The notes under the pieces are model-generated. The model was not told where the DNA came from and did no database searches. It was given only the letters and a program-made list of their open reading frames with translations. Both the position numbers and the translations under genes were made by a program. Positions 28,907-48,914 of a stretch of DNA of 64,000 nt are shown one piece after another; position 1 is the first letter of the stretch, and the number at the start of each line of letters is the position of its first letter. The stretch is taken from assembly GCA_905236645.1 (NCBI GenBank), contig CAJOMZ010000013.1, positions 3,315-67,314 on the forward strand, read 5' to 3'. This DNA is from an uncultured Bacteroidales bacterium. Lineage in GTDB: Bacteria; Bacteroidota; Bacteroidia; Bacteroidales; P3.

Positions 28907-29770
28907 TTAAACCGTGTCGATGAAGTTGCGTTCGGCTTTGCTGAACAGCAGCAGGCCGAGGAACATCGTCACCACGAGACATCCGGCGCAGTAGAGCAGT
29001 CCCATCCAATCCATCTGGCCTATGCCAGTGATGGAGTAGCGCCACGATTCAAAAACGCCGCTCAGAGGGTTGAGTTTCAGCACCCAGCCATAGCTCTTGT
29101 CGGCGGCGATGCTCATCGGGTAGATGATAGGCGTGGCGTACATCAGCAGGCTCATACCGAAGCCTACAAGCATATTCAGGTCGCGGTATTTCACTGTCAT
29201 AGAGCTCACTATCATTCCCCACGACATAGCTGTGAACGCCAGCAGCAACATATAGACCGGGAACATCAGCAGTTCCCAGCGCGGGCAAAGCGGGGCGCCG
29301 GTGACAACGTAATAGACATACACCACTATAAGTAGCAGCAGCTGAATGCCGAAGGTTACGAGCGACGAGGTCATACCCGCCAGTGGAATGATAAGCCTTG
29401 GGAAATAGACCTTGCCGAATATTCCGGCGTTGGCGGCCAGCACATTGCTGTTCTGCCCGAAGCAGGCGTTGAAGTAGTTCCACATCAGGATGCCGCTCAG
29501 GTAGAAGACGGCCTGCGGCACGCCGCCAGTGGATATGCCCGCCAGTCCGCCGAACACGAACATATACATAATAGTCGTGAAAATGGGGCTGATAAAGAAC
29601 CACGCCAGGCCCAGCACCGTCTGCTTATAAACAGTCACGATGTTGCGGCGCACATAGATGCTGAACAGATCGCGGTAGTCCCACATTTCCTTGAGGTTGA
29701 ACTGCATAAACTTTTTCCTTGGTTCCAGTATGGCAGTCCATTGTTCTTGATTTGGGTTGTTGTCAGTCAT
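28907..29770 (-). CDS. wzm: ABC-2 type polysaccharide exporter permease (Wzm/TagG/KpsM-like)
   Basis: 287 aa with 6 TM segments and N-terminal DYRDLFSIYVRRNIVTVYKQTVLGLAWFFISP. Confidence 0.85.
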   Translation of the reverse strand: MTDNNPNQEQWTAILEPRKKFMQFNLKEMWDYRDLFSIYVRRNIVTVYKQTVLGLAWFFISPIFTTIMYMFVFGGLAGISTGGVPQAVFYLSGILMWNYFNACFGQNSNVLAANAGIFGKVYFPRLIIPLAGMTSSLVTFGIQLLLLIVVYVYYVVTGAPLCPRWELLMFPVYMLLLAFTAMSWGMIVSSMTVKYRDLNMLVGFGMSLLMYATPIIYPMSIAADKSYGWVLKLNPLSGVFESWRYSITGIGQMDWMGLLYCAGCLVVTMFLGLLLFSKAERNFIDTV

Positions 29771-34324: not shown

Positions 34325-35131
34325 CTATGGCAGCGGAGCTATATAATTTTCCCAAAACGTTTCGTACTCATACTTCCGCCAGGCGTGGCAGCCGAAGGGC
34401 AACTTCCCGTTTTTCGAGTAAAGCAGCGATGGGTGCTTCTCGAATGCAAAACGGCTGGCCTCTTCGGGGCTCGGCATCTTGGCACGCAATTTTGTGTCTG
34501 AAAGAAAAATGCTGAGGAAAATGTCCTCGTACAGTGTCTCATCCTTCTTGTAATACGCAACGGTGTTCTGGTAGCCAATAGAATAAAAGAGTCTGTATAT
34601 GCAGTTTTTGAGCGAAGACTTCAGGTCCAGCTGGCTACCTTTCCTCACCGGTCCACGATAGCTCAACACATCGATGAAATGCTGTATGCGACGCAGCGAA
34701 AAACCCCCGTTGCCGACACTGGCCGGCTTCAGCTCGCCGTTCACTTCTTCTATCCACGGAGCCCCGATATAGTCGTATCCCTTGCCGCACCATTCGTCCA
34801 GCTCGTCGCGAAACACCCACGCATCAAGCTGGTAGATAAGCATATATCCGTAAGCATTGAAGCGACGGTAGAAATCCGCGTCCAGCATCAGCAGATTGTA
34901 CCCCTTGATGCCGTCGAAAAACCTTGCCGCAAACCTCTCAACAAACCATTCCGCACCGCATTCCGACAGTACTCTGACGTATTCATCCACATTCAAGCTG
35001 TCAGGACACACGATGCAAACCCGGTGCTGTTTCAGCACCGACGCACCTTGCCTGAGCGACAGTCGCTCGTCGGCAGTCGGCATCTCTTTGTGGACGGGGA
35101 TGACTATAATGTTGTTTTTTTGGGTGGGCAT
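34325..35131 (-). CDS. DUF5672-like putative glycosyltransferase
   Basis: A soluble 268-aa protein in a GT cluster. The N-terminal IVIPVHKE...CPDSL pattern is recalled as DUF5672-like. Low certainty. Confidence 0.45.
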   Translation of the reverse strand: MPTQKNNIIVIPVHKEMPTADERLSLRQGASVLKQHRVCIVCPDSLNVDEYVRVLSECGAEWFVERFAARFFDGIKGYNLLMLDADFYRRFNAYGYMLIYQLDAWVFRDELDEWCGKGYDYIGAPWIEEVNGELKPASVGNGGFSLRRIQHFIDVLSYRGPVRKGSQLDLKSSLKNCIYRLFYSIGYQNTVAYYKKDETLYEDIFLSIFLSDTKLRAKMPSPEEASRFAFEKHPSLLYSKNGKLPFGCHAWRKYEYETFWENYIAPLP

Positions 35132-36932: not shown

Positions 36933-37769
36933 TTAATCACCGTTTTGTGTTTTTCTATAGAATATCCTGTTTATGGTTTTCATCAATATGAGATTCATTG
37001 TAACACATTGATGGAAAAATTTGTTTTTTTTCCGGAGTGTGTCAATTGCAGGAATTTGTTCATCGGCTACCAAATCATAATATTTTTGAATTATATCCAC
37101 ATCTTTTAAAATACACGGGGAAACAATTTCTTTTTTTATTGTCATCCTTTCTTCCTCGTTTTTATCTGTATTTGTGGAACTTATCCCGTAGGCATCATAA
37201 TAGGCGATTGTCTCGTTGATGTGTTTGAAACAAAGGCCTTTCAAAGCGGATTTTAAAAAGAATTCCCAATCAGACGCTATCTGGTAGTTCTCGTTGTATG
37301 GGCTGTTCCTCAAAAGGTTTATTCTGACAAATGTAGCTTGGTGTGAAAAGTTTGAATTCATCAACCAATAAAAAGAAAAATTGTCAGGATATGTAATATT
37401 TTGAAGTGTATCTTCTTTTACAATGCAGACATTGCCATACAAAATATCCGCCTCGTGTTCTTTTGCAAACACCTTCTCCAGCGTCGTATCCTCATACAGC
37501 CAGTCCCCGCTGTTCAGGAACAGCAGCCACTCGCCGCGGGCGTGGGCGATGCCCTTGTTCATAGCGTTGTATATGCCCTTGTCGGGCTCGCAGCACCAGT
37601 AGGCAAAGCGGTCCTGATATTGCTCGATCAGTTCGCGGCTGCCGTCGGTGCTGCCGCCGTCGATGACAATCCACTCATAGTCGGCAAACGTCTGGCCGGC
37701 CACGCTGTCGATGGTCCGCTGCAGCCCCTCGCGGTTGTTGAGGTTGACGGTGATTATAGATAAAGTCAC
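36933..37769 (-). CDS. Glycosyltransferase family 2 (compositionally chimeric)
   Basis: LSIITVNLNN, VIDGGSTDGS and the DKGIYNAMNKG motif. It has a GTG start. The 5' third is GC-rich and the rest AT-rich. Confidence 0.9.
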   Translation of the reverse strand: MTLSIITVNLNNREGLQRTIDSVAGQTFADYEWIVIDGGSTDGSRELIEQYQDRFAYWCCEPDKGIYNAMNKGIAHARGEWLLFLNSGDWLYEDTTLEKVFAKEHEADILYGNVCIVKEDTLQNITYPDNFSFYWLMNSNFSHQATFVRINLLRNSPYNENYQIASDWEFFLKSALKGLCFKHINETIAYYDAYGISSTNTDKNEEERMTIKKEIVSPCILKDVDIIQKYYDLVADEQIPAIDTLRKKNKFFHQCVTMNLILMKTINRIFYRKTQNGD

Positions 37770-37793: not shown

Positions 37794-38978
37794 TTAGAAG
37801 AACTTCACTATGTCTGAAGACAAGAATTCTTCAGCACTTATGCCTCCATCGCCTACAATGAAAGCATCTTTGGGTTTGAACCGTTCTTTAAAAGCACTTA
37901 GTCCGTTTGTTTCTCTCTCGGCATTGCTCTTGACTTCAATAGCAATCACAATTCCTTTTTTTCGAAGAACAAAATCAACCTCGTCGTTGCGTTCACGCCA
38001 ATAAAACACCTCAAATCGACGTGCAAAGGCTTGGCTTACAATGTATGCTCCAATAGATGACTCGAAGACGTGTCCCCATATTCTACGGTCAATAATGGCC
38101 TGCTCAAAAGAAACAGGGGTATAGATTGATTTCAGAGCGTTGTTGTATACCTGAAACTTAGGAATGCTTGATTTGATACGGGCAAAATCAAGAGCATATT
38201 TTTGCAGTCCACACAGCAGGCCGCTTTCGTCAAGCAAATGTATATATCCGGCAAGTGTTGAAGTGTTGCCGGCATCTTGTAGCGACCCAATCATTTTGTT
38301 CAGCGAAAGCAACTGTCCCGAATAAGCAGCTGCAAGCTCAAATGTCTGTCGAAGCAGTGCCGGTTTGTTTACAGGTGTACCCAACAGGATGTCTTTGTTT
38401 ATAGAGGCTTCGACAATAGAAGATTGTATGTATTGTTCCCACCTGTCAGGGTCGTCTATCATAGTTGCAGCACCGGGGTAACCACCAAAAAAAACATATT
38501 GATCCATTGTGTATCCAAAACAATCCCTCATCTCGTTGAAACTCCAGTGGGTCATACGTATTTCCTCAAAACGACCTGCAAGAGATTCTGACAGCCCCTT
38601 TTCAAGAAGTACACGACTGCTCCCAAGCAGTAGCACGCGGATGTCAATGTTGTTGAACGTGTCGTTGTCCCATTCTTTTTTTACAGCCTCACTCCAATTC
38701 TGTATTTTCTGTATTTCGTCGATGACCAGAATGATAGTGCTGTACTGTTTTTGATCTTTGACGCTTCGTGTTGCCGCCCAGCAGTCGGATACCCACGAAT
38801 TATTGGTGCCCGACACTTTGTCTGCAGAATAGAACTGGAATGGTAAATCTATGTCGTTCAACACCTGTGTAACCACGGTGGATTTTCCCACCTGACGGGG
38901 ACCCATAACGACCTGAATGAACTTTCGTGGCTCATTCAAACGTTGCATAATGATTTTATATTCAGGCTTTTTATACAT
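37794..38978 (-). CDS. AAA+ ATPase with C-terminal DUF4143 / PD-(D/E)XK-like domain
   Basis: Walker A GPRQVGKST, Walker B ILVIDEIQ, and C-terminal EVDFVL...AIEVKS. Confidence 0.85.
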   Translation of the reverse strand: MYKKPEYKIIMQRLNEPRKFIQVVMGPRQVGKSTVVTQVLNDIDLPFQFYSADKVSGTNNSWVSDCWAATRSVKDQKQYSTIILVIDEIQKIQNWSEAVKKEWDNDTFNNIDIRVLLLGSSRVLLEKGLSESLAGRFEEIRMTHWSFNEMRDCFGYTMDQYVFFGGYPGAATMIDDPDRWEQYIQSSIVEASINKDILLGTPVNKPALLRQTFELAAAYSGQLLSLNKMIGSLQDAGNTSTLAGYIHLLDESGLLCGLQKYALDFARIKSSIPKFQVYNNALKSIYTPVSFEQAIIDRRIWGHVFESSIGAYIVSQAFARRFEVFYWRERNDEVDFVLRKKGIVIAIEVKSNAERETNGLSAFKERFKPKDAFIVGDGGISAEEFLSSDIVKFF

Positions 38979-38990
38979 TTTCTTACATTT

Positions 38991-39030
38991 TACGCAATGG
39001 ACTGCGTATTTTTACGCAATGCGCTGCGTA
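38991..39030. promoter_or_regulatory. Two tandem 18-bp palindromes TACGCA-N6-TGCGTA, 22 bp apart, just upstream of the ATPase gene
   Basis: The palindromes lie at 38991-39008 and 39013-39030, inside a 22-nt direct repeat ttttacgcaatgNNctgcgta. The nearer one is 13 nt from the start codon. Confidence 0.4.
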
Positions 39031-39067
39031 AAGTTTCGTTTCGTATGTTGTTCAGACTGTTGTGGAT

Positions 39068-39182
39068 GTGCTGCCGCCGTCGATGACGATCCACTCATAG
39101 TCGGCAAACGTCTGGCCGACAACGCTGTCTATGGTCCGCCGCAAGCCCTCGCGGTTGTTGAGGTTTGCGGTGATTATAGATA
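39068..39182 (-). pseudogene. Orphan 5' fragment of a GT2 gene (copy of 37648-37762)
   Basis: 115 nt that match with about 10 mismatches. It would encode SIITANLNNREGLRRTIDSVVGQTFADYEWIVIDGGST, has no start codon, and stops after 4 more codons. Confidence 0.8.
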
Positions 39183-39373
39183 GGGGTGGGGTGTCTTTCT
39201 TGTCCGTCAATATGTCAGTCCGAATGCCCATAAAGGAATTTTGGTGTCAGAATTGAAAGCGCATAGTCCAGGTTTGTATTGTCCAGATATATTTTCTCTA
39301 CTTTGCCGAGACTGCGTATTCCGCCGACATCGTTTCGCAGTTTTTCTTTGTAAACGACAAATCGGCAGTGTTA

Positions 39374-39424
39374 TTGCACTGCGGAAGTGCAATATTTTAA
39401 ATAAAATGCACTTTGGGAGTGCAA
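39374..39424. promoter_or_regulatory. Two copies of palindrome TGCACT-N5-AGTGCA, 32 bp apart; the proximal one may terminate the 242-aa gene
   Basis: The copies lie at 39374-39392 and 39407-39424. On the minus strand the proximal copy is followed by TTTTATTT. Confidence 0.4.
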
Positions 39425-39444
39425 GCCGGCTGCGTTGTCGTTTT

Positions 39445-40173
39445 TTAGAATACATCCCTTGTAAGGCCGCCGTACGATTTTGCCGCCTCTTCAAGGGCTT
39501 CTTCGGTTGTGTAGCGCTGGTAGTAGGTGCAGTGAGTGACTGCAGTCTGGCTCGAGCAGCGTTCGCCGCTGACGTGGACCAAAGCCCAGCCTGTCATATT
39601 GTCGGTAAAGCCGTCGTCAACCAATGCCAGTCCATTGCCGGTGTCTGCCATTTCATTTACATTCACATCACGTCGCGAAACGAGCACCTTGGGTCGCTCA
39701 CCCTCGACGATTTGTTTCAGCGTGTATAGCAATAGTTTGTCGCCGCGTTTCAAATCATCGCGTTTAAGGCTGGTAATCAGAGCCGCCGAGCCGCCCACTT
39801 CGCCAAGGTGTTGTTCTATTACAGGCAATACACCTTCGCTCAAAGGCATATCAGGCAACAGCAGCGTTCCATCACTGACAGGACCGTTTTTGGGCAGAAA
39901 AACCACCTGCGTCCGGCGCATTAGACTGAGAAACTGTGCGTAGCCTGTTGGCTTGGCAGGGAACAACGGCACGCCAGCGTATTTGAGCCTTGACCATATC
40001 CGGCAACTGTGCGATAGTTGTTGACGGGCCACGAATTGCTTGCGCGTCCTCCGTTTGGGTTGATAACTTGAGGCGCTTCGAGCAACAGTTTTCCCGTTAC
40101 GGATGTAGAGCGTTATTCCGCTCTTTTTCAATCGTCCAGTGATTGTCAGGCCTTTAATCTTGTCGTTTGCCAT
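39445..40173 (-). CDS. Hypothetical protein with a basic N-terminus and no motif I can assign
   Basis: A 242-aa ORF with clean coding appearance. It has no signal peptide, TM segment or catalytic motif that I recognise. Confidence 0.55.
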   Translation of the reverse strand: MANDKIKGLTITGRLKKSGITLYIRNGKTVARSASSYQPKRRTRKQFVARQQLSHSCRIWSRLKYAGVPLFPAKPTGYAQFLSLMRRTQVVFLPKNGPVSDGTLLLPDMPLSEGVLPVIEQHLGEVGGSAALITSLKRDDLKRGDKLLLYTLKQIVEGERPKVLVSRRDVNVNEMADTGNGLALVDDGFTDNMTGWALVHVSGERCSSQTAVTHCTYYQRYTTEEALEEAAKSYGGLTRDVF

Positions 40174-40323
40174 ATTGTATAAAGGTTATGGTTTAAAAAA
40201 ACAATACTTTCTTGTTGTTGATTGGTTGACAATAGGTTGCGGTGGTATGTGCTTTGAAAAATTATCTTAAAGGGGTCTTTCTTATACTTCTCCAAGCTTA
40301 ACAAACCAAACCCGAGTCATCAT

Positions 40324-40405
40324 TTCAACGATACTTCAACGATACTTCGACCATATTTCAACGATTATATATCGTTGAAATATAGTCGAAGTATCGTTGC
40401 AATGT
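40324..40405. repeat. Hairpin element built from 11-nt TTCAACGATAC units (4 direct, about 3 inverted)
   Basis: Units lie at 40324, 40335, 40346 and 40357. 40337-40365 pairs with 40371-40399 with one mismatch around the loop tatat. Confidence 0.85.
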
Positions 40406-40454
40406 GGTTGATGTATATTTGAAGGGGCCAGGTTGGTATATTCCTTCAGTATGT

Positions 40455-41999
40455 TTAAGCGGAGCAATCTGTTTTTAAATATTTATAGATGAATTTGTCA
40501 ATGTCATAGAAGTGCTTTTCGACATCGGACAGGTGCTCTTCGTCAAAGTCCCACCATTTTATTTTCAGAAGAGCTTCAATTTGTTCAGGTGTAAACCTGT
40601 AACGAATGATTCTTATGGGGCATCCCACGGCGATGGCGTATGGAGGAATGTCTTTAGACACAACGGCACCAGCTCCGATTATGGCTCCGTCGCCGATGGT
40701 TACGCCGTCGAGAATGGTTACATTGGCACCAATAAACACATCGTTGCCTATTGTGATTCGTTTCCTTTCCTCAACCTTGTCTTTTGTCGAAAGTGTCATT
40801 CCGTTTTGTCTCATTGTGGAGTAAAACATAGGAGCTGTACTGATGCCATTGGTGGGATGAACACCCCATCCGCAAACCAAATTCGGTCCGATTGAACAGA
40901 ATTTGCCGATGGTGGTCTTTGAAATAATAGAATTCTGTGCAATGTAGGTGTAGTCACCAATAGTAATGTCCGAGATATTGTAAATTGAGTTCAGTTTAAC
41001 ATTTTTACCAATGGTGAAATTAGACTGACCATCGGATAATGAATCCCAATGAAGATTTCTCCTCAAGATTGATAATTCAGGAACACTGTCCCTAACAATA
41101 CGCCGAACAACTTTTCTGAAAAAAGATAACATTGGTTTGTTATTGTGAGGCTTGCCAAATTCCTTTAGCAGGGCAACTGCCCGTTTGTTGATTTTGATTT
41201 TTTGTTTCTTTACTTTTATATGATTAGCCAGTCTTGGACAACGAAATAGTTCTGTGCTATTACAATGTTCTCCACTGCCGTCAAAACCTATATTCTGTAC
41301 GAGTGAAGTATTAGGGTAAAGCGAGTAGCCATTGCATAAAATAACGGAAGCATTCCATTTGATAAACCACGTATTTAGTTTACCTGTTATATTGTCGATT
41401 AACTGTTGCTCGAATCCGTGTATGGTATTTATGTTCAGTGTTTTCAGCAATTCCCTGTTTTTGATTTCCTGGTAAAGTTGTTTGGCGTTGGAATTGAAGT
41501 GTTTCCACGCTCTTTCCCATGTGGCCCATCCCCAACACGATGTGGCTGGATAGAAAAAAGTTGATGAAAGTCGATGACGCCTTACAGGATACATATAGCC
41601 CGAAATATGCATAACTTGAGGTTCATCTTTATATATCTGTAGTGCATCATTCATATACCGGAGGAAACCAGGGGATGTCACAATGTCATCTTCAAGAACA
41701 ATGACTGTTCCATGCTTATCTATCACCTTACTTACGCCATTTATCACCGAGTTGGCCAGTCCTTTGTTTGCGGTAGCTTCCTCGATATGTATGGTCTTAA
41801 ATCCGGTGATAGTGTGTATATATGTTCGTACTTCATCAATATTGGCTATACATTCTTCTGTCGCGTTGACTGTTGGACCGTCGGCAAAGATGTATAGTTC
41901 GCTATCGTTTGAAAGTTCGCAGTGCTGCAAGGCTTCAACCGTCTGGCGGGTGTGCCATGGACGGTTGTATACGACGAGGACAATGGGGGCAAGTGTCAT
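40455..41999 (-). CDS. Fusion protein: GNT-I/GT2-like glycosyltransferase (N) + left-handed beta-helix hexapeptide acetyltransferase (C)
   Basis: The N-terminal IVLVVYNRP...VLEDD resembles gene 59341..60264. The C-terminal part has hexapeptide repeats (IGNDVFIGANVTILDGVTIGDGAIIGAGAVV). ATG 41999 overlaps the upstream stop as ATGA. Confidence 0.8.
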   Translation of the reverse strand: MTLAPIVLVVYNRPWHTRQTVEALQHCELSNDSELYIFADGPTVNATEECIANIDEVRTYIHTITGFKTIHIEEATANKGLANSVINGVSKVIDKHGTVIVLEDDIVTSPGFLRYMNDALQIYKDEPQVMHISGYMYPVRRHRLSSTFFYPATSCWGWATWERAWKHFNSNAKQLYQEIKNRELLKTLNINTIHGFEQQLIDNITGKLNTWFIKWNASVILCNGYSLYPNTSLVQNIGFDGSGEHCNSTELFRCPRLANHIKVKKQKIKINKRAVALLKEFGKPHNNKPMLSFFRKVVRRIVRDSVPELSILRRNLHWDSLSDGQSNFTIGKNVKLNSIYNISDITIGDYTYIAQNSIISKTTIGKFCSIGPNLVCGWGVHPTNGISTAPMFYSTMRQNGMTLSTKDKVEERKRITIGNDVFIGANVTILDGVTIGDGAIIGAGAVVSKDIPPYAIAVGCPIRIIRYRFTPEQIEALLKIKWWDFDEEHLSDVEKHFYDIDKFIYKYLKTDCSA

Positions 42000-42739
42000 A
42001 ATTTGTGGCAAATGAAGATGTTTTCGTCTTTGTTTAGTCCGCGTTTTTTCGAGTATTTCTTCGTAATGTTTTCAATATCCACATAAAATCCAGCCTCTTT
42101 TAGTCTTTTAGGATAGTCCATACCATAGAGTCTGACATGATCGTTTTGCCCATAAGCCTTGAAACGAGCCTCAGGTGTTGTGATTGTTGGATTATCAATT
42201 GTTTTTTGTAGTTTTAATGCATAGGGTACTTGCAAAATAGCAGTTCCTTTGTATTTGATTATACGGCGAAGTTCTTTCATTGCTGTTATGTCGTTGGGTA
42301 CGTGTTCCAGAACATGGTTGCAGATGACGAGGTCGTATGTGTTGTCTGGTATCTCGGGCATGGACATGATGTCTATATCCTGTACGTTGTCAGGATAATA
42401 ATAACCTTCGGCGCGTTTGTCGCTAGCATTATACTCGATGTTTGTTTGCCTAGAAAGAAAAAATGAGAGTTGTCTCTCAGGAGCAATGTGAAGACATTTG
42501 ATGTGCTCTTTTTTCTGTTTTGGCAGGAAATAGTCTTTAAGATAAAGATAAACCAATCGCTCTCTGTCGCTACTACCACATTGAGGACACGTAGATGGTC
42601 TCCGTCCAGCTCCTACACCATGTAATTCTATCCACACAGGAGCATCGGTGCCTCCATCTAAATATTTTTTGAAGCGGGATCCGCAAATGGGACAGTGGCT
42701 CCAAAAGAGACGATGATATAACTCACGAATAAGACTCAT
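41996..42739 (-). CDS. Class I SAM-dependent methyltransferase with N-terminal CxxC...CxxC zinc ribbon
   Basis: CPICGS...CPQCGS, followed by an MT core (DLVICNHVLEHV). Confidence 0.75.
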   Translation of the reverse strand: MSLIRELYHRLFWSHCPICGSRFKKYLDGGTDAPVWIELHGVGAGRRPSTCPQCGSSDRERLVYLYLKDYFLPKQKKEHIKCLHIAPERQLSFFLSRQTNIEYNASDKRAEGYYYPDNVQDIDIMSMPEIPDNTYDLVICNHVLEHVPNDITAMKELRRIIKYKGTAILQVPYALKLQKTIDNPTITTPEARFKAYGQNDHVRLYGMDYPKRLKEAGFYVDIENITKKYSKKRGLNKDENIFICHKL

Positions 42740-42743
42740 ATGC

Positions 42744-43496
42744 TCATAGTAGTTGTTTGTTGGAAATAAGGATGTCTAGTCCTTCATCAATATTATCTGT
42801 TGTAATATAGAAATCTTTGGTTGAATAGTAATCCAAATAGTTCGATCTCCTGTAAACATAGTGGAATTCTTTGGCGTTGTAGTCGTACCTTTGAGGACGG
42901 CAACGTTCCTTCTCGATGTTGACAATTTCAGGATTTGCTGATATGGAGTATACATGACTTTGCGGATAATGCTGTTTTAGGATTGTTTTAATTCCAGTTT
43001 CATTATATTCTGTTATGTGATATTGATTCCAAGGTTTTTGCCCGCTGGTCAATCTATATGTTCTATTTGGGGTTGTAATTAATACTAGTCCATCATGTTT
43101 TACGAGCCGCTTAATATTTTGAAAGTACACATCCAAATTGGTAACATGTTCTATTACCTGAAAAGAAATGATAATATCGAAACTATGTTCGGGTAAGTCG
43201 ATTATATTTCCATTGTATGGTAAAAATGTCAAGTTGTCTTTTGAATATTTTCTTTGAGCATAGTTTATAGTGTCTATGTTTATGTCCATTGCTGTGATTT
43301 TCGCACCAGTTTCAGAAAGTATTCTTGCGCCATATCCATCTCCACAGCCAATTTCAAGGACGCTGTTACTTGGTTTTATATTCATATGCGTATTTATGTT
43401 TAAGAAATAGTATCCATTGTTCTTCGGTTTCTTGGTATAGTTCGGGAATAAGCCGTTCTGCGTTTGGAGCAGCAATGTCAAATGAATACTGGTCAA
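42744..43496 (-). CDS. Class I SAM-dependent methyltransferase
   Basis: Motif I is VLEIGCGDGYG and motif II-like is FDIIISFQVIEHV. The start is uncertain (TTG 43496 or ATG 43385). Confidence 0.75.
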   Translation of the reverse strand: MTSIHLTLLLQTQNGLFPNYTKKPKNNGYYFLNINTHMNIKPSNSVLEIGCGDGYGARILSETGAKITAMDINIDTINYAQRKYSKDNLTFLPYNGNIIDLPEHSFDIIISFQVIEHVTNLDVYFQNIKRLVKHDGLVLITTPNRTYRLTSGQKPWNQYHITEYNETGIKTILKQHYPQSHVYSISANPEIVNIEKERCRPQRYDYNAKEFHYVYRRSNYLDYYSTKDFYITTDNIDEGLDILISNKQLL

Positions 43497-44418
43497 GATT
43501 GTAGTGTTTTAGCAGGTTTTCTAACTGAATATTGTTATAGTGTACATTATTTGTATTGAGCATTTGGTCGTATTTCCCATTAGTTGTTGTTATCCATTCA
43601 AGAGTCTCTTCGTATAATGGTGCAGTCCGGCAAGAGACATTGTTAAGTATTGCCATAATTTTAAACCAAATGTCATCTGCAGTTGGAGAGAGAGTCATAA
43701 ACAAATCCTTTCGGAATACGTCTGGATGTAAACTGTGAGGAGGATAGAGGATGCCGCCAAATCCTACAGGCAAGTAAGATAGGGATGCTCTACTTGTATT
43801 TTTGGGAGGATCACTCCATTCAATATATGGCTTTATATGACCTGTAGAATCAAATTCAATAATGTGGGCGTGGGAGCAAATAATGTCCGCTGGATTTTTT
43901 GTGTGCTGAGAATAAAGTACGTCAATTAAATTAGCTGGATATATACAGTCGTCATCAACAGTGATAATAATATCATCAGGAAATAAGAGAAGAGAGGGAA
44001 TTAATTTCTTGTATGATTTAATATCTTCGGTATAATGTATTTCAATACCTCTTTTCTCAAGAATCTTCAGTGAAGCAGGAATTGTTTCGTAAGAAAACTC
44101 TTTTTCATCAAGCCATAGTATTATTTTATTTGGTTTCTGCGTTTGCCTCAAGAGACTTTCTAATGTGAGGTAAACTTTATGAATCCGTTGTCCATACGTG
44201 GTTAGAGAAACTATTAATTGTTTGTCTTCATACTTTTGGTTTGTTATGCCGCTGTTACCACCTTGTAGAAAAAGTAATTCGTAATGTTGCAGTATGATAT
44301 TTTTTCTTAGTTCACGCATTGTGAATTTTATATATTCATGGTTGCTTTCAACCATTCTGTCAAGTTGGAGACAATTTCTAAATATACGTTTTAATTTGTC
44401 AATACTTCTTTCAAACAT
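43366..44418 (-). CDS. Putative glycosyltransferase (GT-A-like)
   Basis: VSLTTYGQRIHKVYLTLESLLRQTQKPNKIILWLDE and TVDDD (DXD-like). Confidence 0.55.
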   Translation of the reverse strand: MFERSIDKLKRIFRNCLQLDRMVESNHEYIKFTMRELRKNIILQHYELLFLQGGNSGITNQKYEDKQLIVSLTTYGQRIHKVYLTLESLLRQTQKPNKIILWLDEKEFSYETIPASLKILEKRGIEIHYTEDIKSYKKLIPSLLLFPDDIIITVDDDCIYPANLIDVLYSQHTKNPADIICSHAHIIEFDSTGHIKPYIEWSDPPKNTSRASLSYLPVGFGGILYPPHSLHPDVFRKDLFMTLSPTADDIWFKIMAILNNVSCRTAPLYEETLEWITTTNGKYDQMLNTNNVHYNNIQLENLLKHYNLDQYSFDIAAPNAERLIPELYQETEEQWILFLKHKYAYEYKTK

Positions 44419-44435
44419 ACATCCAAAACATTACG

Positions 44436-45110
44436 TTAATCAATACATTTTTTATAGAAATAAAAATCTGACCAAGAAGACTCCGCTTCCATTGGATTAT
44501 AAGGATATTTATTTGGTATGTATTTGATTAGTTTCCATTCTGTAATATTCATCTCTATCCAATCCGTAAAGCGACGGTGTTTTACGTGATTGGCTTCAAT
44601 AGTATCTTCATCGTTGCAAGAATATATGCAAACATATTTAGTTGAGGAGGAGAATAACCGATGCATATATGTGTTGAAGACAGAATCTTCAACTAAATGA
44701 TATATTACATCAAGAGACAATGATAGTTCTGCTTTTTGATTAGATTTAAAATCTTCTCCGCCACAGTATATAAAACTCTTTGTAATGTCGTCCTCGAATA
44801 ATTCTATACACATCTGAATAGATTTCTTAGATACATCATATCCAACATATTTGGGATAATCAGCTAATTGTAGTTGGCGTCCATCGCCGCATCCCCATTC
44901 TATTATAGACTTGATGTCGTGTTCTTTGACAAACTTGTTGAGGATTTCGGCTTTGAATTCTGCCAGTCTGCCATATGAACCAGCGCCAGAATTGCCACCT
45001 GATTGATATCTCATTTCCCAATATAGAGCACTTCCATTCCATCCGTCTATATTCAGTTTCGTTTTTGGGAAAGAAATGCTTTCCTTTATTTTTCTTAATA
45101 GTCTTTTCAT
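44436..45110 (-). CDS. Class I SAM-dependent methyltransferase
   Basis: Motif I is IIEWGCGDGRQL, followed by LSLDVIYHL. Confidence 0.75.
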   Translation of the reverse strand: MKRLLRKIKESISFPKTKLNIDGWNGSALYWEMRYQSGGNSGAGSYGRLAEFKAEILNKFVKEHDIKSIIEWGCGDGRQLQLADYPKYVGYDVSKKSIQMCIELFEDDITKSFIYCGGEDFKSNQKAELSLSLDVIYHLVEDSVFNTYMHRLFSSSTKYVCIYSCNDEDTIEANHVKHRRFTDWIEMNITEWKLIKYIPNKYPYNPMEAESSWSDFYFYKKCID

Positions 45111-46405
45111 TATTTTTCGGATAAATATTTACCAGGAAGGAGAGCGGTATAGCCACGATTGGGGCGAATATTAACTCCTTTTAGAAAATAATTGTCTATT
45201 AGCACGTTTAGAATAAAAGCAGAATGGATAGCATCGCAAAAGTCCTCGGGTGCTGTTGTTCCAAGTGATAATTGTACGTACATATGGTATGAATTTGGAC
45301 GCATATTAAGTTCGGGAATTTCAAGAAAGAAACTGCCCTTATTTATTCCAGAGAAATCGTGTTCCATCTCGTCAGATGCCCATTGCATAACAAGGTTGCC
45401 ATAAGGATCGTATAGCAAGCAACCAACAATCAGTTTAGACGGATCGATGTATTCTGTTGAAGTTACCTTAAATTCTAATTTCGCATATTGACCGACAAAA
45501 GCTTCCGAAACAATTTGGTTATTGGAATTTCGTAATAAAATACCGGTAACTTTGATTTTCCCATTTCCAATGCGGTCCGTTCTAACCGATATGGGTAAAT
45601 CTGCATCTTGTGGTGTAATGTTCAAGTATTTCTCAATGGTTTCTTCCGCAGTGCCGAAATAGGTTGTCTCCCCATTTTTTAATAGAATTCCAGAATGACA
45701 TAGTTGTTTTACGGCAGTCATATTATGACTGACAAACAGCACGGTGCGGCCTTGGCCTTTGCTGACGTCTTGCATCTTGCCGATGGCTTTCTTCTGGAAT
45801 TCGGCGTCGCCGACGGCGAGGACTTCGTCAACGACGAGGATTTCGGGGTCGAGGTGGGCGGCGACGGCAAAGCCGAGGCGGACCATCATTCCGCTGCTGT
45901 AGCGTTTGACGGGGGTGTCGATGTAGCGTTCGCAGCCGCTGAAGTCGACGATTTCATCGAGTTTGCGGTCGATTTCCCATTTCTTCATTCCGAGGATGCA
46001 GCCGTTCATATAGATGTTTTCGCGGCCGGTCAGTTCTGGGTGGAAGCCGGTGCCGACTTCGAGCAGCGAGGCTATGCGGCCTCGGGTGTATATCTTGCCT
46101 GTGGTGGGGGCGGTGACGCGGCTGAGGAGCTTGAGCAGGGTGCTTTTGCCGGCACCGTTCTTGCCGATGATGCCGAGGACGTCGCCTTCCAGGACTTCGA
46201 GGTTGATATCTTTGAGGGCATAGACGTAGTCGGAGTGGCCCTTGGTGCTGCGGTCGTTGGTCTCACCGATCATAAGGTAGGGGTCTTCCTTGCGCATCAC
46301 GCTGGTAATCCACCAGCGGCGCAGGTCGTGGCTCAATGTGCCGGTGCCGACAGTGCCGAGCCGGTAGAGTTTGCCGACGTTTTCAAATCGTATTACGGGT
46401 TGCAT
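45110..46405 (-). CDS. wzt: Polysaccharide ABC exporter ATP-binding protein with C-terminal glycan-binding (Wzt_C-like) extension
   Basis: Walker A GKNGAGKST, signature YSSGMMVRL, Walker B ILVVDE and the H-loop FVSHN, plus about 190 extra C-terminal residues. The start is taken at ATG 46405. Confidence 0.9.
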   Translation of the reverse strand: MQPVIRFENVGKLYRLGTVGTGTLSHDLRRWWITSVMRKEDPYLMIGETNDRSTKGHSDYVYALKDINLEVLEGDVLGIIGKNGAGKSTLLKLLSRVTAPTTGKIYTRGRIASLLEVGTGFHPELTGRENIYMNGCILGMKKWEIDRKLDEIVDFSGCERYIDTPVKRYSSGMMVRLGFAVAAHLDPEILVVDEVLAVGDAEFQKKAIGKMQDVSKGQGRTVLFVSHNMTAVKQLCHSGILLKNGETTYFGTAEETIEKYLNITPQDADLPISVRTDRIGNGKIKVTGILLRNSNNQIVSEAFVGQYAKLEFKVTSTEYIDPSKLIVGCLLYDPYGNLVMQWASDEMEHDFSGINKGSFFLEIPELNMRPNSYHMYVQLSLGTTAPEDFCDAIHSAFILNVLIDNYFLKGVNIRPNRGYTALLPGKYLSEK

Positions 46406-46453
46406 TAAAAGAGATTGTATATTAAATGCTTCGAGGTACTCAAAAGACACAGG

Positions 46454-47362
46454 TCAGTTGAGTTCTTTGAGTTTTTCGATGGGAATGTCAAGACTTTTAG
46501 CTATTATTTCAAGCGGAACGCCGTTTTCTTTAAGACTTCGGGCATTGTTCATTTTTTCTTCGGCTCGTCCTTCAGCCCGTCCTTCAGCTCGTCCTTCAGC
46601 CCGTCCTTCTTTCAGCCCCTCCATTCGTCCTTCATATCGGCCGGTTTTCAGTACGCTGCGTTGGTAACGAATGTTTTCCATGTCGTAGTTGTAGCGTTTG
46701 CGATCTTCTTCAGAAAGGGAAGCCACGTGAAGCCTTTCTCGCGCCTCGGGCAATCCGGGGGCGGTAGCTGTTTGTGGTATCTCGCCCGTTTTGAGGAAAC
46801 TGATCCATTCGTCAAGTGGCGTAGTGGCAACTTTGTCGAACTCGTCAACGCGAAGCAGATAGTATTCCGGCATTATGTCCGCCGGGGTGTCGCAGCGGAA
46901 CGCGTCGCGTTGGCCTTCGGAAAGGTGGAGTATGTCGTCGGGCTGATGCAGCCCCCTGAATTCGGTGCGTCCACGATACACATAGTCATTGCCTTGCCCA
47001 AGGTCGAAATAGACGATGTTGATGGAATAAACCTTGCGGATGTGGTCGTAGGTCTGCCCGGACTTGATGTATTCGGTGATTGCTTTGGAAACTCCGTATG
47101 TCATACGGTGGAAATAGTCCAACTCGCGGTCGTTCTGGATTTCGAATATCATCAGCTCGCCTTCGTCGTTCTCGGCCAGCAAATCAACGCGGTTGAATTT
47201 GTCTTCTGCATATTCTTTGTTGCCTTCACTCTCCAGAAGGCTTATTATATGTATAGGCTTTTCGAGAAGAGCCGTCAAGAGGCCTTCTACAATCACATAG
47301 TTGGCTTTGTCGCGCAACAGGCGCTTCATCGCCCAGTCGAATCTGACGAGTTCATTTTTCAT
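46454..47362 (-). mobile_element. Rpn-family recombination-promoting nuclease / putative transposase (PD-(D/E)XK)
   Basis: N-terminal VRFDWAMKRLLRDKAN and RVDLLAENDEGELMIFEIQ. The C-terminal (EGRA)n repeat plus helix are typical of the family. Confidence 0.8.
46566..46610. repeat. 12-nt in-frame tandem repeat (cgtccttcagcy x about 4) encoding (EGRA)n in the Rpn gene
   Basis: Read directly from the sequence. The protein reads KEGRAEGRAEGRAEGRAEE. Confidence 0.85.
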
Positions 47363-47441
47363 AATTTATTTGTTTTTATTTTTTAACGGGATAATGATTG
47401 TTGTATTGTGTCTGATTTGTTTTTTGTGAAATAATCGTGTC

Positions 47442-48914
47442 TTAAAATGTTTTTTTCCAGCACCAGATGGGGTCGAATTCGCCACCGGGTATGCTGTCGG
47501 CAAGGGTGTAGTTGGCGTCCAGGTATTCGTCTGCCGGTTCCGGCCGAGGACCTTGCGTGAGAACCCAAACTGGATGGAGTTCCTTGATGCCGTGGGTTTT
47601 CTCATACTCTTGCAGACGAGGCGATATGGCGACGTGGCCGCCATAAATAATACGGTTGCATTGGTAGATGTTTTCGTCGGCAAAAAGGCCGGCGCCGATA
47701 TGGTTTAAACCTGCATTGTAGATAGATTTCTGCTCTTCTTGCGGCAAATTGCTGACAAAGCGATGGAAACCGTCGTTTATTTCAGTATTGGCGGTTTTGC
47801 CGCGAAGACGGAAAAGAAGCAAATCTGCGGCATCGTAGCTAATGAAACAGGAGAAAAAGATTGCGCCTGCTAATGCTATATTCCCAAAAATGTTTTTCTC
47901 TGTAATTGAGAGTGCAGAAGTTATGACAAAAAGAGGTATGAAGATCATCGTATAGTGCCAAAAATCAAAAGACCCAATGGCCAATATGCTGGCAACTATA
48001 GAAATGAAACATGGGACACTAATAGATGCTTCTGTATTGTGTTTTGCATACAGTAATAGAAGTGTCAATAAAAATACAACAGGTAGAATGTAGTGTTGAG
48101 CCAATGATAGAAATGGAAGAGCGTTTTTGTTTCCAAAGTACAGGAAATTAAACGCAAAAGTACCATATATCATTTCATAGACACCTGTCCAACCTGCTTT
48201 TGCAAGATAGAACAGGGAGCATAGGACAAACACGATTGCCATTCCGCCGCACATTATCGCAATGTCTTTCCAGAGGCGTTTGAAATCTTTGGCTTGGATG
48301 CATTTTATTAAATGCCACAATACAAAACCAATTATTGGTGCAGTATTGTTCAGGCGAATCATAGCTATTATACCGACGCAAAGACCAATAATAAATGAAT
48401 CTGTATGTGAATATAATGGACTATTGTTGTTTTTTCCTTTGGCATTGCGGATATATAAATATATGGGAAGGCTTATAAACGGCAGACACCATTCTTCGCA
48501 GAGATTGCCTCTTTGATAAAAGGCGAGCAGGAACAATAATCCTGAAAGAGAAATAAGGACAGACGGTATTGGCTTCCTGACAATCAGAACTATTGTTTTA
48601 TACCAAATGATTAGAGTACAGAATAAGGAAAGAATCTGCAGCGCCATTATTCCCCACTTGGGGCTGATGGTCATTCCCAAAGCCTGGATGAACCACAGCA
48701 CAGGCCCTTTGTGGTCGAAAAGGTCGACGTAGGGGGTGCCGCCCTGCGACAGGCACACGCCCATCTCCTGGAAGATGCCGCTGTCGCCGTGGAACCAGAA
48801 CGGGTAATGCTCATAGAGCGGCGATGTGGTGCAGGAGAAGAGGAACACGAAGAGGAATGCCGCGACGAACAGTATCCCGTATATTAGCCAAGTTGGAATA
48901 TTGACGGTCTTCAT
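47442..48914 (-). CDS. Polytopic membrane protein, GT-C (ArnT/PMT-like) glycosyltransferase candidate
   Basis: About 12 TM segments, a first-loop acidic motif (GDSGIFQEMG...PYVDLFDHKGP) and a soluble C-terminal domain. Confidence 0.5.
   Translation of the reverse strand: MKTVNIPTWLIYGILFVAAFLFVFLFSCTTSPLYEHYPFWFHGDSGIFQEMGVCLSQGGTPYVDLFDHKGPVLWFIQALGMTISPKWGIMALQILSLFCTLIIWYKTIVLIVRKPIPSVLISLSGLLFLLAFYQRGNLCEEWCLPFISLPIYLYIRNAKGKNNNSPLYSHTDSFIIGLCVGIIAMIRLNNTAPIIGFVLWHLIKCIQAKDFKRLWKDIAIMCGGMAIVFVLCSLFYLAKAGWTGVYEMIYGTFAFNFLYFGNKNALPFLSLAQHYILPVVFLLTLLLLYAKHNTEASISVPCFISIVASILAIGSFDFWHYTMIFIPLFVITSALSITEKNIFGNIALAGAIFFSCFISYDAADLLLFRLRGKTANTEINDGFHRFVSNLPQEEQKSIYNAGLNHIGAGLFADENIYQCNRIIYGGHVAISPRLQEYEKTHGIKELHPVWVLTQGPRPEPADEYLDANYTLADSIPGGEFDPIWCWKKTF

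Follow-up and report, generated by a model that had tools for sequence, protein, structure and literature searches.

Gene content of the glycan-export locus

The window, i.e. the whole stretch of 64,000 nucleotides of Bacteroidales DNA that was analysed, encodes a Wzm/Wzt glycan exporter together with several glycosyltransferase (GT) and methyltransferase (MT) genes (Table 1). The positions originally given for wzt, the three methyltransferase ORFs, the GT and the GT-hexapeptide acetyltransferase agree with the ORFs and their Pfam matches.

Table 1. Features of the wzt locus, in positions of the window
Feature	Position	Strand	Description
Rpn-family gene	46454..47362	-	PD-(D/E)XK nuclease / putative transposase, inserted immediately 5' of wzt; PDDEXK_2, TIGR01784
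wzt	45110..46405	-	431 aa; ABC ATPase of Wzm/Wzt glycan exporter with C-terminal carbohydrate-binding domain; Pfam ABC_tran, Wzt_C
wzt codons 1-223	45737..46405	-	Walker A to D-loop; GC3-rich (0.79), host-like composition
Change-point support interval	45727..45742	-	between GRTVL and FVSHN in wzt; GC3 likelihood fit
wzt codons 224-431	45110..45736	-	H-loop, hinge helices, Wzt_C beta-sandwich; AT-rich (GC3 0.32), apparently imported
MT1	44436..45110	-	224-aa class-I SAM methyltransferase, motif IEWGCGDG; weak Pfam Methyltransf_31/25/11
GT::MT2	42744..44418	-	GT-A-like glycosyltransferase fused to SAM methyltransferase, 562 aa when intact; candidate chain terminator
Site of 14-bp deletion	43381..43382	-	ACTAGCAAAATCAC in L001; alignment A1, columns 1070-1083
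MT3	41996..42739	-	247-aa methyltransferase, N-terminal CxxC...CxxC motif; Methyltransf_11 38 bits; variable accessory gene
GT-acetyltransferase	40455..42011	-	518 aa; GNT-I-like N-terminus fused to hexapeptide acetyltransferase; variable accessory gene
DUF5672 gene	34325..35131	-	right-hand end of variable region; DUF5672 176 bits
wzm	28907..29770	-	ABC-2 permease partner of Wzt; ABC2_membrane 66 bits; GC3 0.74

The Wzt protein matches ABC_tran with 74 bits and Wzt_C with 36.8 bits, which is above the threshold (GA 30.4). Its residues 59-385 match A. aeolicus Wzt (8DKU/7K2T) in a phmmer search with an E value of 1e-64, and the AF2 model of the product, which is strand-rich in residues 280-400 (pLDDT ~90), superposes on the full-length A. 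aeolicus protein 8dku_A with a TMq of 0.68 and a TMt of 0.74. The Pfam match and the superposition support the proposal that the C-terminal extension is a Wzt carbohydrate-binding domain. Sequence similarity of this domain to solved carbohydrate-binding domains was not detectable, which precludes a comparison of cap-binding residues.

The original prediction counted three separate methyltransferases. The second one is in fact part of GT::MT2, which three further assemblies from this strain group (L001, L002 and L173) carry as a single 562-aa ORF. In the window this gene is split into a 350-aa GT ORF (43366-44418) and an MT ORF (42744..43496) by a 14-bp deletion, which causes a frameshift; at the junction an ATG remains in the frame of the MT part. 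The deletion is private to the window and is the sole difference to L001 and L173 over 6.9 kb and 20.8 kb. Therefore, the function of the candidate terminator may be impaired, or its two parts may be produced as separate polypeptides. The MT part scores 72-75 bits with Methyltransf_23/11, the match to GT2 is weak (22 bits), and the similarity to WbdD is generic (E about 5e-4). The AF2 model of the homologue P0122 (pLDDT 86) contains an N-terminal helix of residues 2-51.

The GT-acetyltransferase matches Hexapep with 58 bits and GNT-I weakly, and resembles WbbJ/Vat-like acetyltransferases. Its two halves have separate homologues in L048, L053 and L183; the fusion is not conserved. The Rpn-family gene (PDDEXK_2 88 bits, TIGR01784 89 bits) is missing at the equivalent position in L003, L007, L091 and L092. 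The wzm gene lies 15 kb downstream of wzt on the same strand and is 91% identical to the wzm gene at the far end of L091. Relatives differ over a stretch of ~10.6 kb that reaches the DUF5672 gene at 35131, which is the first gene to be conserved again; its homologues (57-64% identity) form the corresponding border in L003, L092, L091 and L183.

Genes accompanying the Wzt binding domain

The comparison sequences are metagenome assemblies throughout. The gene order Wzt (with a C-terminal identity of 73% or more), MT1 and GT::MT2 was found in six contexts, i.e. the window/L002, L003, L092, L088, L089 and L183. MT1 is conserved immediately after wzt in L003, L092, L088, L089, L183, L091, L093 and L095, and an MT3 homologue (65%) is present among the other contexts only in L092. 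Judged from gene order, the co-occurring core is therefore a stretch of ~3.0 kb consisting of the Wzt C-terminal domain, MT1 and the fused GT::MT2, while MT3 and the GT-acetyltransferase are strain-variable and lie outside the conserved module. The idea that the methyltransferases were exchanged together with the binding domain is supported for MT1 and GT::MT2, but not for MT3. A single cassette of roughly 5.3 kb, as it had been proposed, was not recovered: the core is smaller, whereas the variable region of this lineage extends further.

It could be argued that the methyltransferases are not cap writers at all and methylate repeat-unit sugars or nucleotide-sugar precursors, that their adjacency to wzt reflects the clustering of serotype genes, and that the binding domain reads another feature or the polymer backbone. 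MT1 would fit such a role, since its homologues (47-59%) occur widely in metagenomes of soil, marine and gut origin, mostly without a wzt gene within 8 kb. MT1 also stands beside very different Wzt C-termini (identity 53% in L091, 44% in L093 and none detectable in L095), and its closest NCBIfam model is TIGR03587, a pseudaminic-acid-associated methylase (E 1e-5, below the cut-off). The fold search with GT::MT2 likewise gave nothing beyond generic methyltransferases of small molecules and sugars. However, the fusion adjoins wzt in all seven contexts examined and was found beside none of roughly 80 other wzt genes examined; among about 90 wzt contexts it was seen only directly downstream of wzt. 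Its divergence also tracks that of the binding domain: a Wzt C-terminal identity of 73-75% goes with a GT identity of 51-69%, and one of 26% with 43%. In L179-182 a diverged GT::MT (43-47%) directly follows the diverged Wzt_C (26%), and this pair lies by itself amid defence and mobile genes, with no other glycan genes between the two. We therefore regard a function unrelated to capping as unlikely.

Composition break and recombination within wzt

The sliding GC content falls from 0.61 at 45800-46199 to 0.38-0.40 below 45600, and in 30-codon windows the GC3 of wzt is ~0.80 over codons 1-215 and ~0.30 from codon 226 on. The maximum likelihood change point lies after codon 223 (0.79 to 0.32; LLR 50.7; reached in 0/2000 permutations). 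The first base past the break is 45736, with a 2-lnL support interval of 45727-45742, in exact agreement with the break near 45735 that had been read by eye. The break is not situated just past the H-loop, as was assumed, but directly ahead of the FVSHN codons. The GC3-rich half of the gene resembles the housekeeping genes (0.62-0.81; gyrB 0.81) and wzm. The AT-rich character extends through the adjacent genes as predicted as far as MT2, with a GC3 of 0.29-0.32 for the Wzt C-terminal part, MT1, GT and MT2; beyond that the run is not uniform, as MT3 has 0.38 and the GT-acetyltransferase 0.42. A three-segment GC3 fit places a second break at ~42715, which is a soft boundary because GC3 rises there only from 0.30 to 0.38-0.42.

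The wzt change point recurs at the equivalent position in L002, L089, L088, L091, L003 and L007. The GC3 difference between the nucleotide-binding domain (NBD) and the C-terminal part exceeds 0.15 in 52 of 97 related loci.

Domain-wise identities to the wzt product of the window were computed among 120 homologues. One class of homologues shares 72-75% identity in the C-terminal segment, and others with a 93-94% identical NBD share 41-52% there. The NBD and C-terminal identities are 0.86 and 1.00 for P0001, 0.96 and 0.75 for P0002, 0.83 and 0.75 for P0007, 0.93 and 0.52 for P0014, and 0.94 and 0.41 for P0016. The NBD groups the window with L003 and L092, versus L088 and L089, while MT1, GT and MT2 group the window with L089 and L092 with L088, leaving L003 alone. 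The fine-scale signal of the Wzt C-terminal part is intermediate and does not clearly follow GT::MT2 (20+/15-, 11+/10-). Max-chi2 breakpoints fall into columns 258-320 of the Wzt alignment in five triplets, each with 0/300 permutations. In one of them, 35 NBD sites favour L003 and 1 favours L089, compared to 22 and 78 in the GT. These incongruent groupings and breakpoints bear out the predicted recombination within the conserved NBD. A recent event of that kind is found in sample ERZ27234816, in which two wzt 5' ends are joined to one downstream sequence: up to nucleotide 251 of wzt, contig L174 has the sequence of the window, and contig L002 has a different 5' end of 231 nucleotides and is identical from nucleotide 232 on, the blastn alignment over the 11 kb giving 99.4%.

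A GC3 drop could in principle also arise without recombination at codon 223, if selection on codon usage and accuracy acts on the conserved NBD and AT-biased drift on the fast-evolving C-terminus. This would explain a drop throughout the phylum, and indeed most relatives have it at a matching position and it coincides with the end of amino-acid conservation at alignment positions 221-241. However, the step spans about 5 codons and the two genes that follow are equally low in GC3, whereas the separate and less conserved wzm follows the GC3 of the NBD with r = 0.95. The high-GC loci L061, L063 and L075 show no drop, and the identities are incongruent beyond what differing rates would give (P0016 versus P0007), as are the max-chi2 results. 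Selection within the gene is thus very improbable. Least probable of all is a mis-assembly that joined two organisms at conserved NBD sequence, for although the window sits on a 67.6-kb MAG contig and each of the contigs L174, L175 and L002 stops or branches within the NBD, the junction is base-for-base the same in independent assemblies of three other samples (L001, ERZ1667847; L002, ERZ27234816; L173, ERZ28573638), its reading frame is unbroken, the AT-rich block is flanked on both sides by GC-rich host genes on one contig, and the pattern recurs in unrelated assemblies, e.g. L089 and L180. From its sequence, wzt of the window is a recombinant mosaic, in which a host-like NBD half is joined to an AT-rich, imported half.

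A proposed exchange module and its known counterparts

Taken together, we consider it likely that a mosaic wzt arose by NBD-anchored exchange and that a cap-writing and cap-reading module was inherited along with it, the functional roles being suggested by gene linkage and analogy. Codons 1-223 of wzt and wzm would represent the resident transporter core. From the H-loop codons on, the hinge, the carbohydrate-binding domain, MT1 and GT::MT2 would stem from a low-GC pool shared among Bacteroidales. The NBD is the probable anchor for homologous recombination because its nucleotides 232-669 are 84-86% identical to wzt genes of distant Bacteroidales lineages, compared to about 70% for the flanking genes. 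In the lineage of the window the right-hand anchor may be the stretch from DUF5672 toward wzm, past the serotype-specific genes. GT::MT2, perhaps with MT1, would add and O-methylate the non-reducing terminal sugar and thereby stop chain growth; the co-inherited binding domain would recognise the methyl cap and license export, on the model of E. coli O8, A. aeolicus and the P. syringae TET operon. For MT3 and the GT-acetyltransferase, a role as strain-variable decoration or assembly genes is proposed.

Export by means of a methyl cap and a carbohydrate-binding domain is described in PMC9445017. In E. coli O8/O9a Wzt has a conserved NBD and a serotype-specific C-terminal domain (PMC9445017, PMC11231755). 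Like this system (K. pneumoniae O5/O3) with Wzm-Wzt and WbdD, the window carries an ABC-transporter-dependent glycan locus, in which the type of the Wzt binding domain goes with a nearby encoded, here candidate, methyl-adding terminator. Unlike WbdD, that candidate is a GT-A-like::methyltransferase without kinase and long coiled-coil; moreover, wzm is distant from wzt, and the host is a Bacteroidales organism.

The best match for the whole Wzt in both sequence and structure is A. aeolicus WzmWzt, whose binding domain binds a 3-O-methyl-mannose or 3-O-methyl-rhamnose cap (PMC9445017). The overall identity is however only 31%, and a search with just the C-terminal domain yields no significant match in sequence, which precludes a comparison of the methyl pocket (Trp362 and neighbours).

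Terminators fused to one or more GT modules in one polypeptide are known from K. pneumoniae O7 ORF6 and O12 WbbB, in which a long coiled-coil molecular ruler lies between the terminator and the GT modules (PMC11231755). Such a ruler is typical of the characterised terminators (PMC11231755). The candidate of the window is likewise fused to a glycosyltransferase, but it is compact (about 560 aa) with the GT first and the MT second, and the only extended helix in the model is the 50-residue N-terminal one.

The P. syringae CPA 'TET operon' wzt-wbdD-wbdA comprises about 5.3 kb with genes for transport, termination and elongation, and swapping this block changes the LPS type (PMC7820976). Its phylogeny conflicts with those of the core genome and of the conserved flank on the wzm side, which the authors attribute to recombination or HGT (PMC7820976). 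As in the window, a contiguous block that starts at wzt is at odds with its flank. There, however, the boundary between conserved and variable sequence lies between wzm and wzt, and the block encodes a GT4 WbdA and a separate WbdD; in the window the boundary lies inside wzt at the H-loop, and an unrelated GT-A::MT fusion and MT1 follow. The intragenic GC3 drop in wzt is common across the phylum of the Bacteroidales and the pattern is already known from other bacteria, and the system of the window has its parallels in E. coli O8/O9a and in the TET operon of P. syringae.

The composition break inside wzt

The glycan-biosynthesis locus, on a contig of an uncultured Bacteroidales MAG, spans about 36 kb (about 27.7-64 kb) and lies on the minus strand throughout. 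Its wzt product belongs to the class of exporters which bear a binding domain. The N-terminal part is an ABC nucleotide-binding domain (NBD; Pfam ABC_tran, 1.8e-20), and the translation shows the Walker A, signature, Walker B and H-loop motifs (GKNGAGKST, YSSGM, ILVVDE and VSHN). The closest relatives in the PDB are Wzt, TagH and TarH. The C-terminal part is assigned to the Wzt_C beta-sandwich by PF14524 (36.8 bits, gathering score 30.4; residues 291-425 of the 446-aa ORF) and, as anticipated in the original prediction, by an AF2 model which is strand-rich in this part (pLDDT about 90 over residues 280-400, mean 77). The whole model aligns over 438 columns with full-length 8dku_A from A. aeolicus (TM 0.68/0.74, E 1.6e-34). 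A phmmer search of the PDB with the C-terminal 183 residues alone gave no meaningful match. The ABC-2 permease partner Wzm (ABC2_membrane, 66 bits) is encoded in the same locus and on the same strand but 15 kb off, unlike in most Bacteroidota relatives, where wzm is found directly upstream of wzt. In the window the two genes bracket the serotype-specific genes, and the comparison locus L091 is arranged alike.

Features of the locus and their composition (window coordinates)
Feature	Coordinates	Strand	GC3	Remarks
Housekeeping genes in the window			0.62-0.81	gyrB 0.81
490-aa membrane protein gene	47442-48914	-		polytopic
rpn gene	46454-47362	-		Rpn-family PD-(D/E)XK
Long ORFs	45704-46408, 46415-47386	+		over NBD and rpn gene
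wzt	46405..45110	-		431 aa; Pfam ABC_tran and Wzt_C, both above threshold
wzt, NBD segment	codons 1-223	-	0.79
wzt, Wzt-C segment	codons 224-431	-	0.29-0.32
MT1	44436..45110	-	0.29-0.32	224 aa
GT::MT2	42744..44418	-	0.29-0.32	range covers GT and MT2
MT3	41996..42739	-	0.38
GT-acetyltransferase	40455..42011	-	0.42
41-nt inverted repeat	40321-40411			88% complementary, 5-nt loop
242-aa protein gene (hyp39445)	39445-40173	-		GC 0.52, host-like
115-nt direct repeat	37648-37762, 39068-39182			92% identical
AAA_14/DUF4143 ATPase gene	37794-38978
GT2 gene	36933-37769
DUF5672 gene	34325..35131	-
wzm	28907-29770	-	0.74

The original prediction, read by eye, placed a composition break near 45735 in wzt, just past the H-loop. 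The computed profiles confirm a sharp break. Around 45700 the sliding GC drops from 0.61 to about 0.38, and in 30-codon windows of wzt the GC3 drops from about 0.80 to about 0.30. By likelihood the GC3 change point lies after codon 223, with 45736 as the first base past it (support interval 45727-45742, LLR 50.7, reached by 0/2000 permutations). The coordinate read by eye was therefore exact; its position relative to the H-loop has to be corrected, as the FVSHN codons already fall on the AT-rich side. Since the GC3 of the NBD matches that of the housekeeping genes and of wzm, the NBD has the composition of the host, unlike all of the sequence from codon 224 on. Fitting three segments between 46405 and 34000 sets breaks at 45735 and about 42715 (GC 0.59, 0.35 and 0.43), of which the second is soft. 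The two long plus-strand ORFs over the GC-rich NBD and the rpn gene are read as shadow ORFs caused by high GC3, not as genes. Promoter and terminator scans of 39000-47500 gave counts at or below the shuffled expectation.

The break in the window is one clear case of a general arrangement. GC3 change points at codons 215-241 were also found in the metagenomic loci L002, L003, L007, L088, L089 and L091. Over 97 loci the mean GC3 is 0.49 for the NBD and 0.30 for the C-terminal part; the difference exceeds 0.15 in 52 of the 97 and 0.30 in 23. The GC3 of wzm follows that of the NBD closely (r = 0.95), and in the subset with a large break the means are 0.68 for wzm, 0.71 for the NBD and 0.31 for the C-terminus. 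In this arrangement wzm and the wzt NBD make up a resident core, and an exchangeable pool of low GC includes the binding domain together with the genes downstream of it. Breaks stronger than that of the window are seen in L180 (4683-5972; NBD and C-terminal GC3 of 0.89 and 0.26), L095 (0.88 and 0.23) and a Fibrobacter MAG (0.87 and 0.31). The wzt gene of L179 is split into two ORFs.

Mosaic structure of wzt

To compare the two halves of the protein, 120 Wzt homologues were cut at residue 225 and the identity of each half to the window was determined. The two halves give incongruent values. The homologue P0001 has 0.86 in the NBD and 1.00 in the C-terminus, and the corresponding values are 0.96 and 0.75 for P0002, 0.83 and 0.75 for P0007, 0.93 and 0.52 for P0014, and 0.94 and 0.41 for P0016, while the bulk of the matches has 0.80 and 0.50.

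The alignment of wzt and its flanks with relatives, proposed along with the original prediction, also gave incongruent groupings. Four loci (L003, L092, L007, L091) have the upstream genes in common with the window and an NBD 93-96% identical to it, and their downstream genes differ. L088 and L089 carry an NBD of a different clade (81-83%) between flanks quite unlike those of the window. The identity matrix of the NBD separates the window, L003 and L092 from L088 and L089; the matrices of MT1, GT and MT2 pair the window with L089 and L092 with L088, leaving L003 alone. In concatenated alignments of Wzt, MT1 and GT::MT, max-chi2 gives significant breakpoints in five triplets, all within Wzt columns 258-320 and each reached by 0/300 permutations. 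When the window is compared with L003 and L089, 35 NBD sites favour L003 and 1 favours L089, the GT sites are divided 22 to 78, and the Wzt-C sites are intermediate (20 and 15). Because of this intermediate signal the ancient breakpoints are taken to be scattered from codon about 223 to about 320. Identity matrices, max-chi2 and composition agree that the phylogeny of the module is incongruent with the conserved flank, and that wzt has a mosaic structure.

Two contigs of the sample ERZ27234816 differ at the 5' end of wzt. L174 matches the window at 100% identity between 59720 and 46155 (wzt nt 251). In L002 the first 231 nt of wzt differ by 86 mismatches and are closest to the L052/L089 clade (71-74%); from nt 232 there is no further mismatch in wzt, and blastn to the window gives 99.4% over 11 kb. 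The differing ends were compared as L002 1-254, L174 13293-13566 and window 46155-46428. Two 5' contexts therefore join one downstream block near Walker A, which implies a very recent exchange with its breakpoint there or, alternatively, an assembly-graph bubble between co-resident strains. Another contig, L175 (sample ERR3525316), is 100% identical to the window and breaks off at 45833 (wzt nt 573), some 100 nt short of the composition break. The reason may be that strains branch at the junction, or simply that coverage drops.

NBD nt 232-669 retain 84-86% identity across distant lineages and the flanking genes about 70%, so that the NBD provides an extended homologous tract in which crossing over could occur. 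A scan of genome representatives for near relatives gave species representatives of only about 65% identity and none that is conspecific. Exact-protein look-ups with the upstream and Wzm proteins, aimed at conspecifics with another cassette, returned the same serotype only, together with contigs ending inside the NBD. A literature search for an intragenic wzt breakpoint gave nothing specific.

Genes linked to the binding domain

The glycosyltransferase (43366..44418) and the methyltransferase (42744..43496) that were annotated as separate genes in the original prediction form one fused gene of 562 aa in L001, L002 and L173, assemblies from three other samples which are otherwise near-identical to the window. 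A 14-bp deletion private to the window, between 43381 and 43382 (minus strand), splits this GT::MT2 gene. The lost sequence is ACTAGCAAAATCAC, flanked by short CATATGA/CATATAA repeats. The deletion cuts the GT short, and an ATG is left in the frame of the methyltransferase; as stop and ATG overlap at the junction, the methyltransferase part might, judging from the reading frames, still be made separately.

MT2 is a SAM-dependent methyltransferase (Methyltransf_23 75 bits, Methyltransf_11 72 bits) whose match to WbdD chains is weak and generic (E 4.5e-4 to 1e-3). The GT domain falls into a large family of GT-A-like proteins of about 300 aa, which is uncharacterised and in which about twenty members are fused to a methyltransferase. 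The AF2 model of the GT::MT homologue P0122 (pLDDT 86) consists of an N-terminal helix (residues 2-51), a GT-A-like domain and a class-I methyltransferase; judged from this model there is a single extended helix and no long coiled-coil. Foldseek found only generic class-I methyltransferases for the GT::MT model, and no informative match to the GT-A domain among the top matches. MT1 is a divergent class-I methyltransferase. None of MT1, MT3, GT::MT2, the 490-aa membrane protein and hyp39445 is named by NCBIfam at the equivalog level.

Wzt-C and GT::MT2 are linked. In the window (with L002), L003, L092, L088, L089 and L183, where Wzt-C is 73% or more identical to that of the window, wzt is followed by MT1 and then GT::MT2. 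In L179-182, where wzt and GT::MT stand among defence and mobile genes and Wzt-C has only 26% identity, GT::MT (GT 43%, MT 47%) comes directly after wzt, without MT1. The contiguous order of Wzt, optional MT1 and GT::MT, with the predicted terminator and the GT in one gene, is thereby found in seven contexts with differing flanks. About 80 further wzt genes were examined, and none has the fusion beside it. Where Wzt-C is of another type the gene content differs as well, as with the formyltransferase, aminotransferase and GT56 of L007; L091, L093 and L095 have MT1 and a stand-alone GT. Among the contexts compared MT3 recurs in L092 only and the GT-acetyltransferase fusion nowhere.

Due to this linkage, the conserved unit is Wzt-C with GT::MT2, usually with MT1. 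It extends from 45736 to 42744, about 3.0 kb, with its right end near the soft break. An obligate link of MT1 to wzt was rejected: in a scan of environmental metagenomes seeded with the MT1 alignment, homologues were common and most had no wzt nearby. MT1 is therefore a frequent companion and not a defining part. The proposed joint exchange of cap writers and cap reader stands as an idea; the 5.3-kb extent and the list of three methyltransferases do not, as MT3 and the GT-acetyltransferase are variable. In the lineage of the window the region differing among relatives reaches as far as the DUF5672 gene (35131), about 10.6 kb. Synteny gives no support to an edge at 40455, though an inverted repeat with TCAACGATACTT-like units lies just beyond it, in the intergenic gap downstream of the GT-acetyltransferase gene.

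Several other features were observed around the locus. The rpn gene, annotated as recombination-promoting nuclease / putative transposase, sits as an insertion exactly between wzt and the membrane-protein gene upstream of it, a position occupied in syntenic relatives only by an intergenic spacer or by other genes; it has an (EGRA)n-like tandem repeat close to its 3' end. The 115-nt direct repeat flanks the AAA_14/DUF4143 ATPase gene, and the GT2 gene has one of the two copies as its 5' end, which suggests insertion of the ATPase gene with duplication of the target sequence. The 242-aa protein has no match in Pfam and NCBIfam. Homologues (64-65%) follow GT::MT in L089/L090 and the acetyltransferase in L048, and the protein is a recurrent companion of such loci. 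The 490-aa membrane protein, kept upstream of wzt, received no assignment in the family scan and a weak PF27757 match in precomputed data. L091 and L092 (3683-8175) each contain three tandem paralogues of this protein, which may be a periplasmic glycosyltransferase of GT-C-like type.

Proposed function and relation to known systems

By analogy to WbdD-Wzt of E. coli O8/O9a, to A. aeolicus and to the TET operon of P. syringae, GT::MT2, with or without MT1, would cap the chain with an O-methyl sugar, and the Wzt binding domain would read this cap. In A. aeolicus the carbohydrate-binding domain binds a 3-O-methyl cap (PMC9445017).

A wider reading would make the wzt H-loop a recombination junction throughout the Bacteroidota (and in Fibrobacter), at which the resident wzm/NBD core accepts swappable modules of binding domain and terminator, with the compact GT-A::methyltransferase fusion lacking a coiled-coil ruler as a new class of terminators, and with the transporter genes now placed on either side of the entire serotype-specific region in the lineage of the window. 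Taken together, these propositions are tentative and rather unlikely to hold jointly.

The surface glycans of gut and rumen Bacteroidales vary extensively, and their ABC-transporter-dependent pathway is essentially uncharacterised; a literature search found no paper combining Bacteroidales with wzm and wzt. The locus can serve as a base-resolved example of the way in which export specificity and predicted chain termination can be swapped jointly without replacing the ATPase engine. In metagenomic loci the boundary between core and variable genes has a simple signature, a GC3 drop at the wzt H-loop together with a wzm GC3 that matches that of the NBD, and the GT-A::MT fusions are a candidate terminator family.

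In the TET operon of P. syringae wzt-wbdD-wbdA were exchanged via recombination or horizontal gene transfer (PMC7820976). The junction of the window differs in that it lies inside wzt and not between wzm and wzt. Known terminators have a long coiled-coil ruler (PMC11231755), in contrast to the candidate described here, which is modelled as a compact GT-A::MT fusion without one. Further differences from the known systems are the position of wzm and wzt on either side of the variable region, and the host, a Bacteroidales organism. The principle itself was established earlier, in Enterobacteria, Aquifex and Pseudomonas, and the finding accordingly extends rather than overturns known biology.
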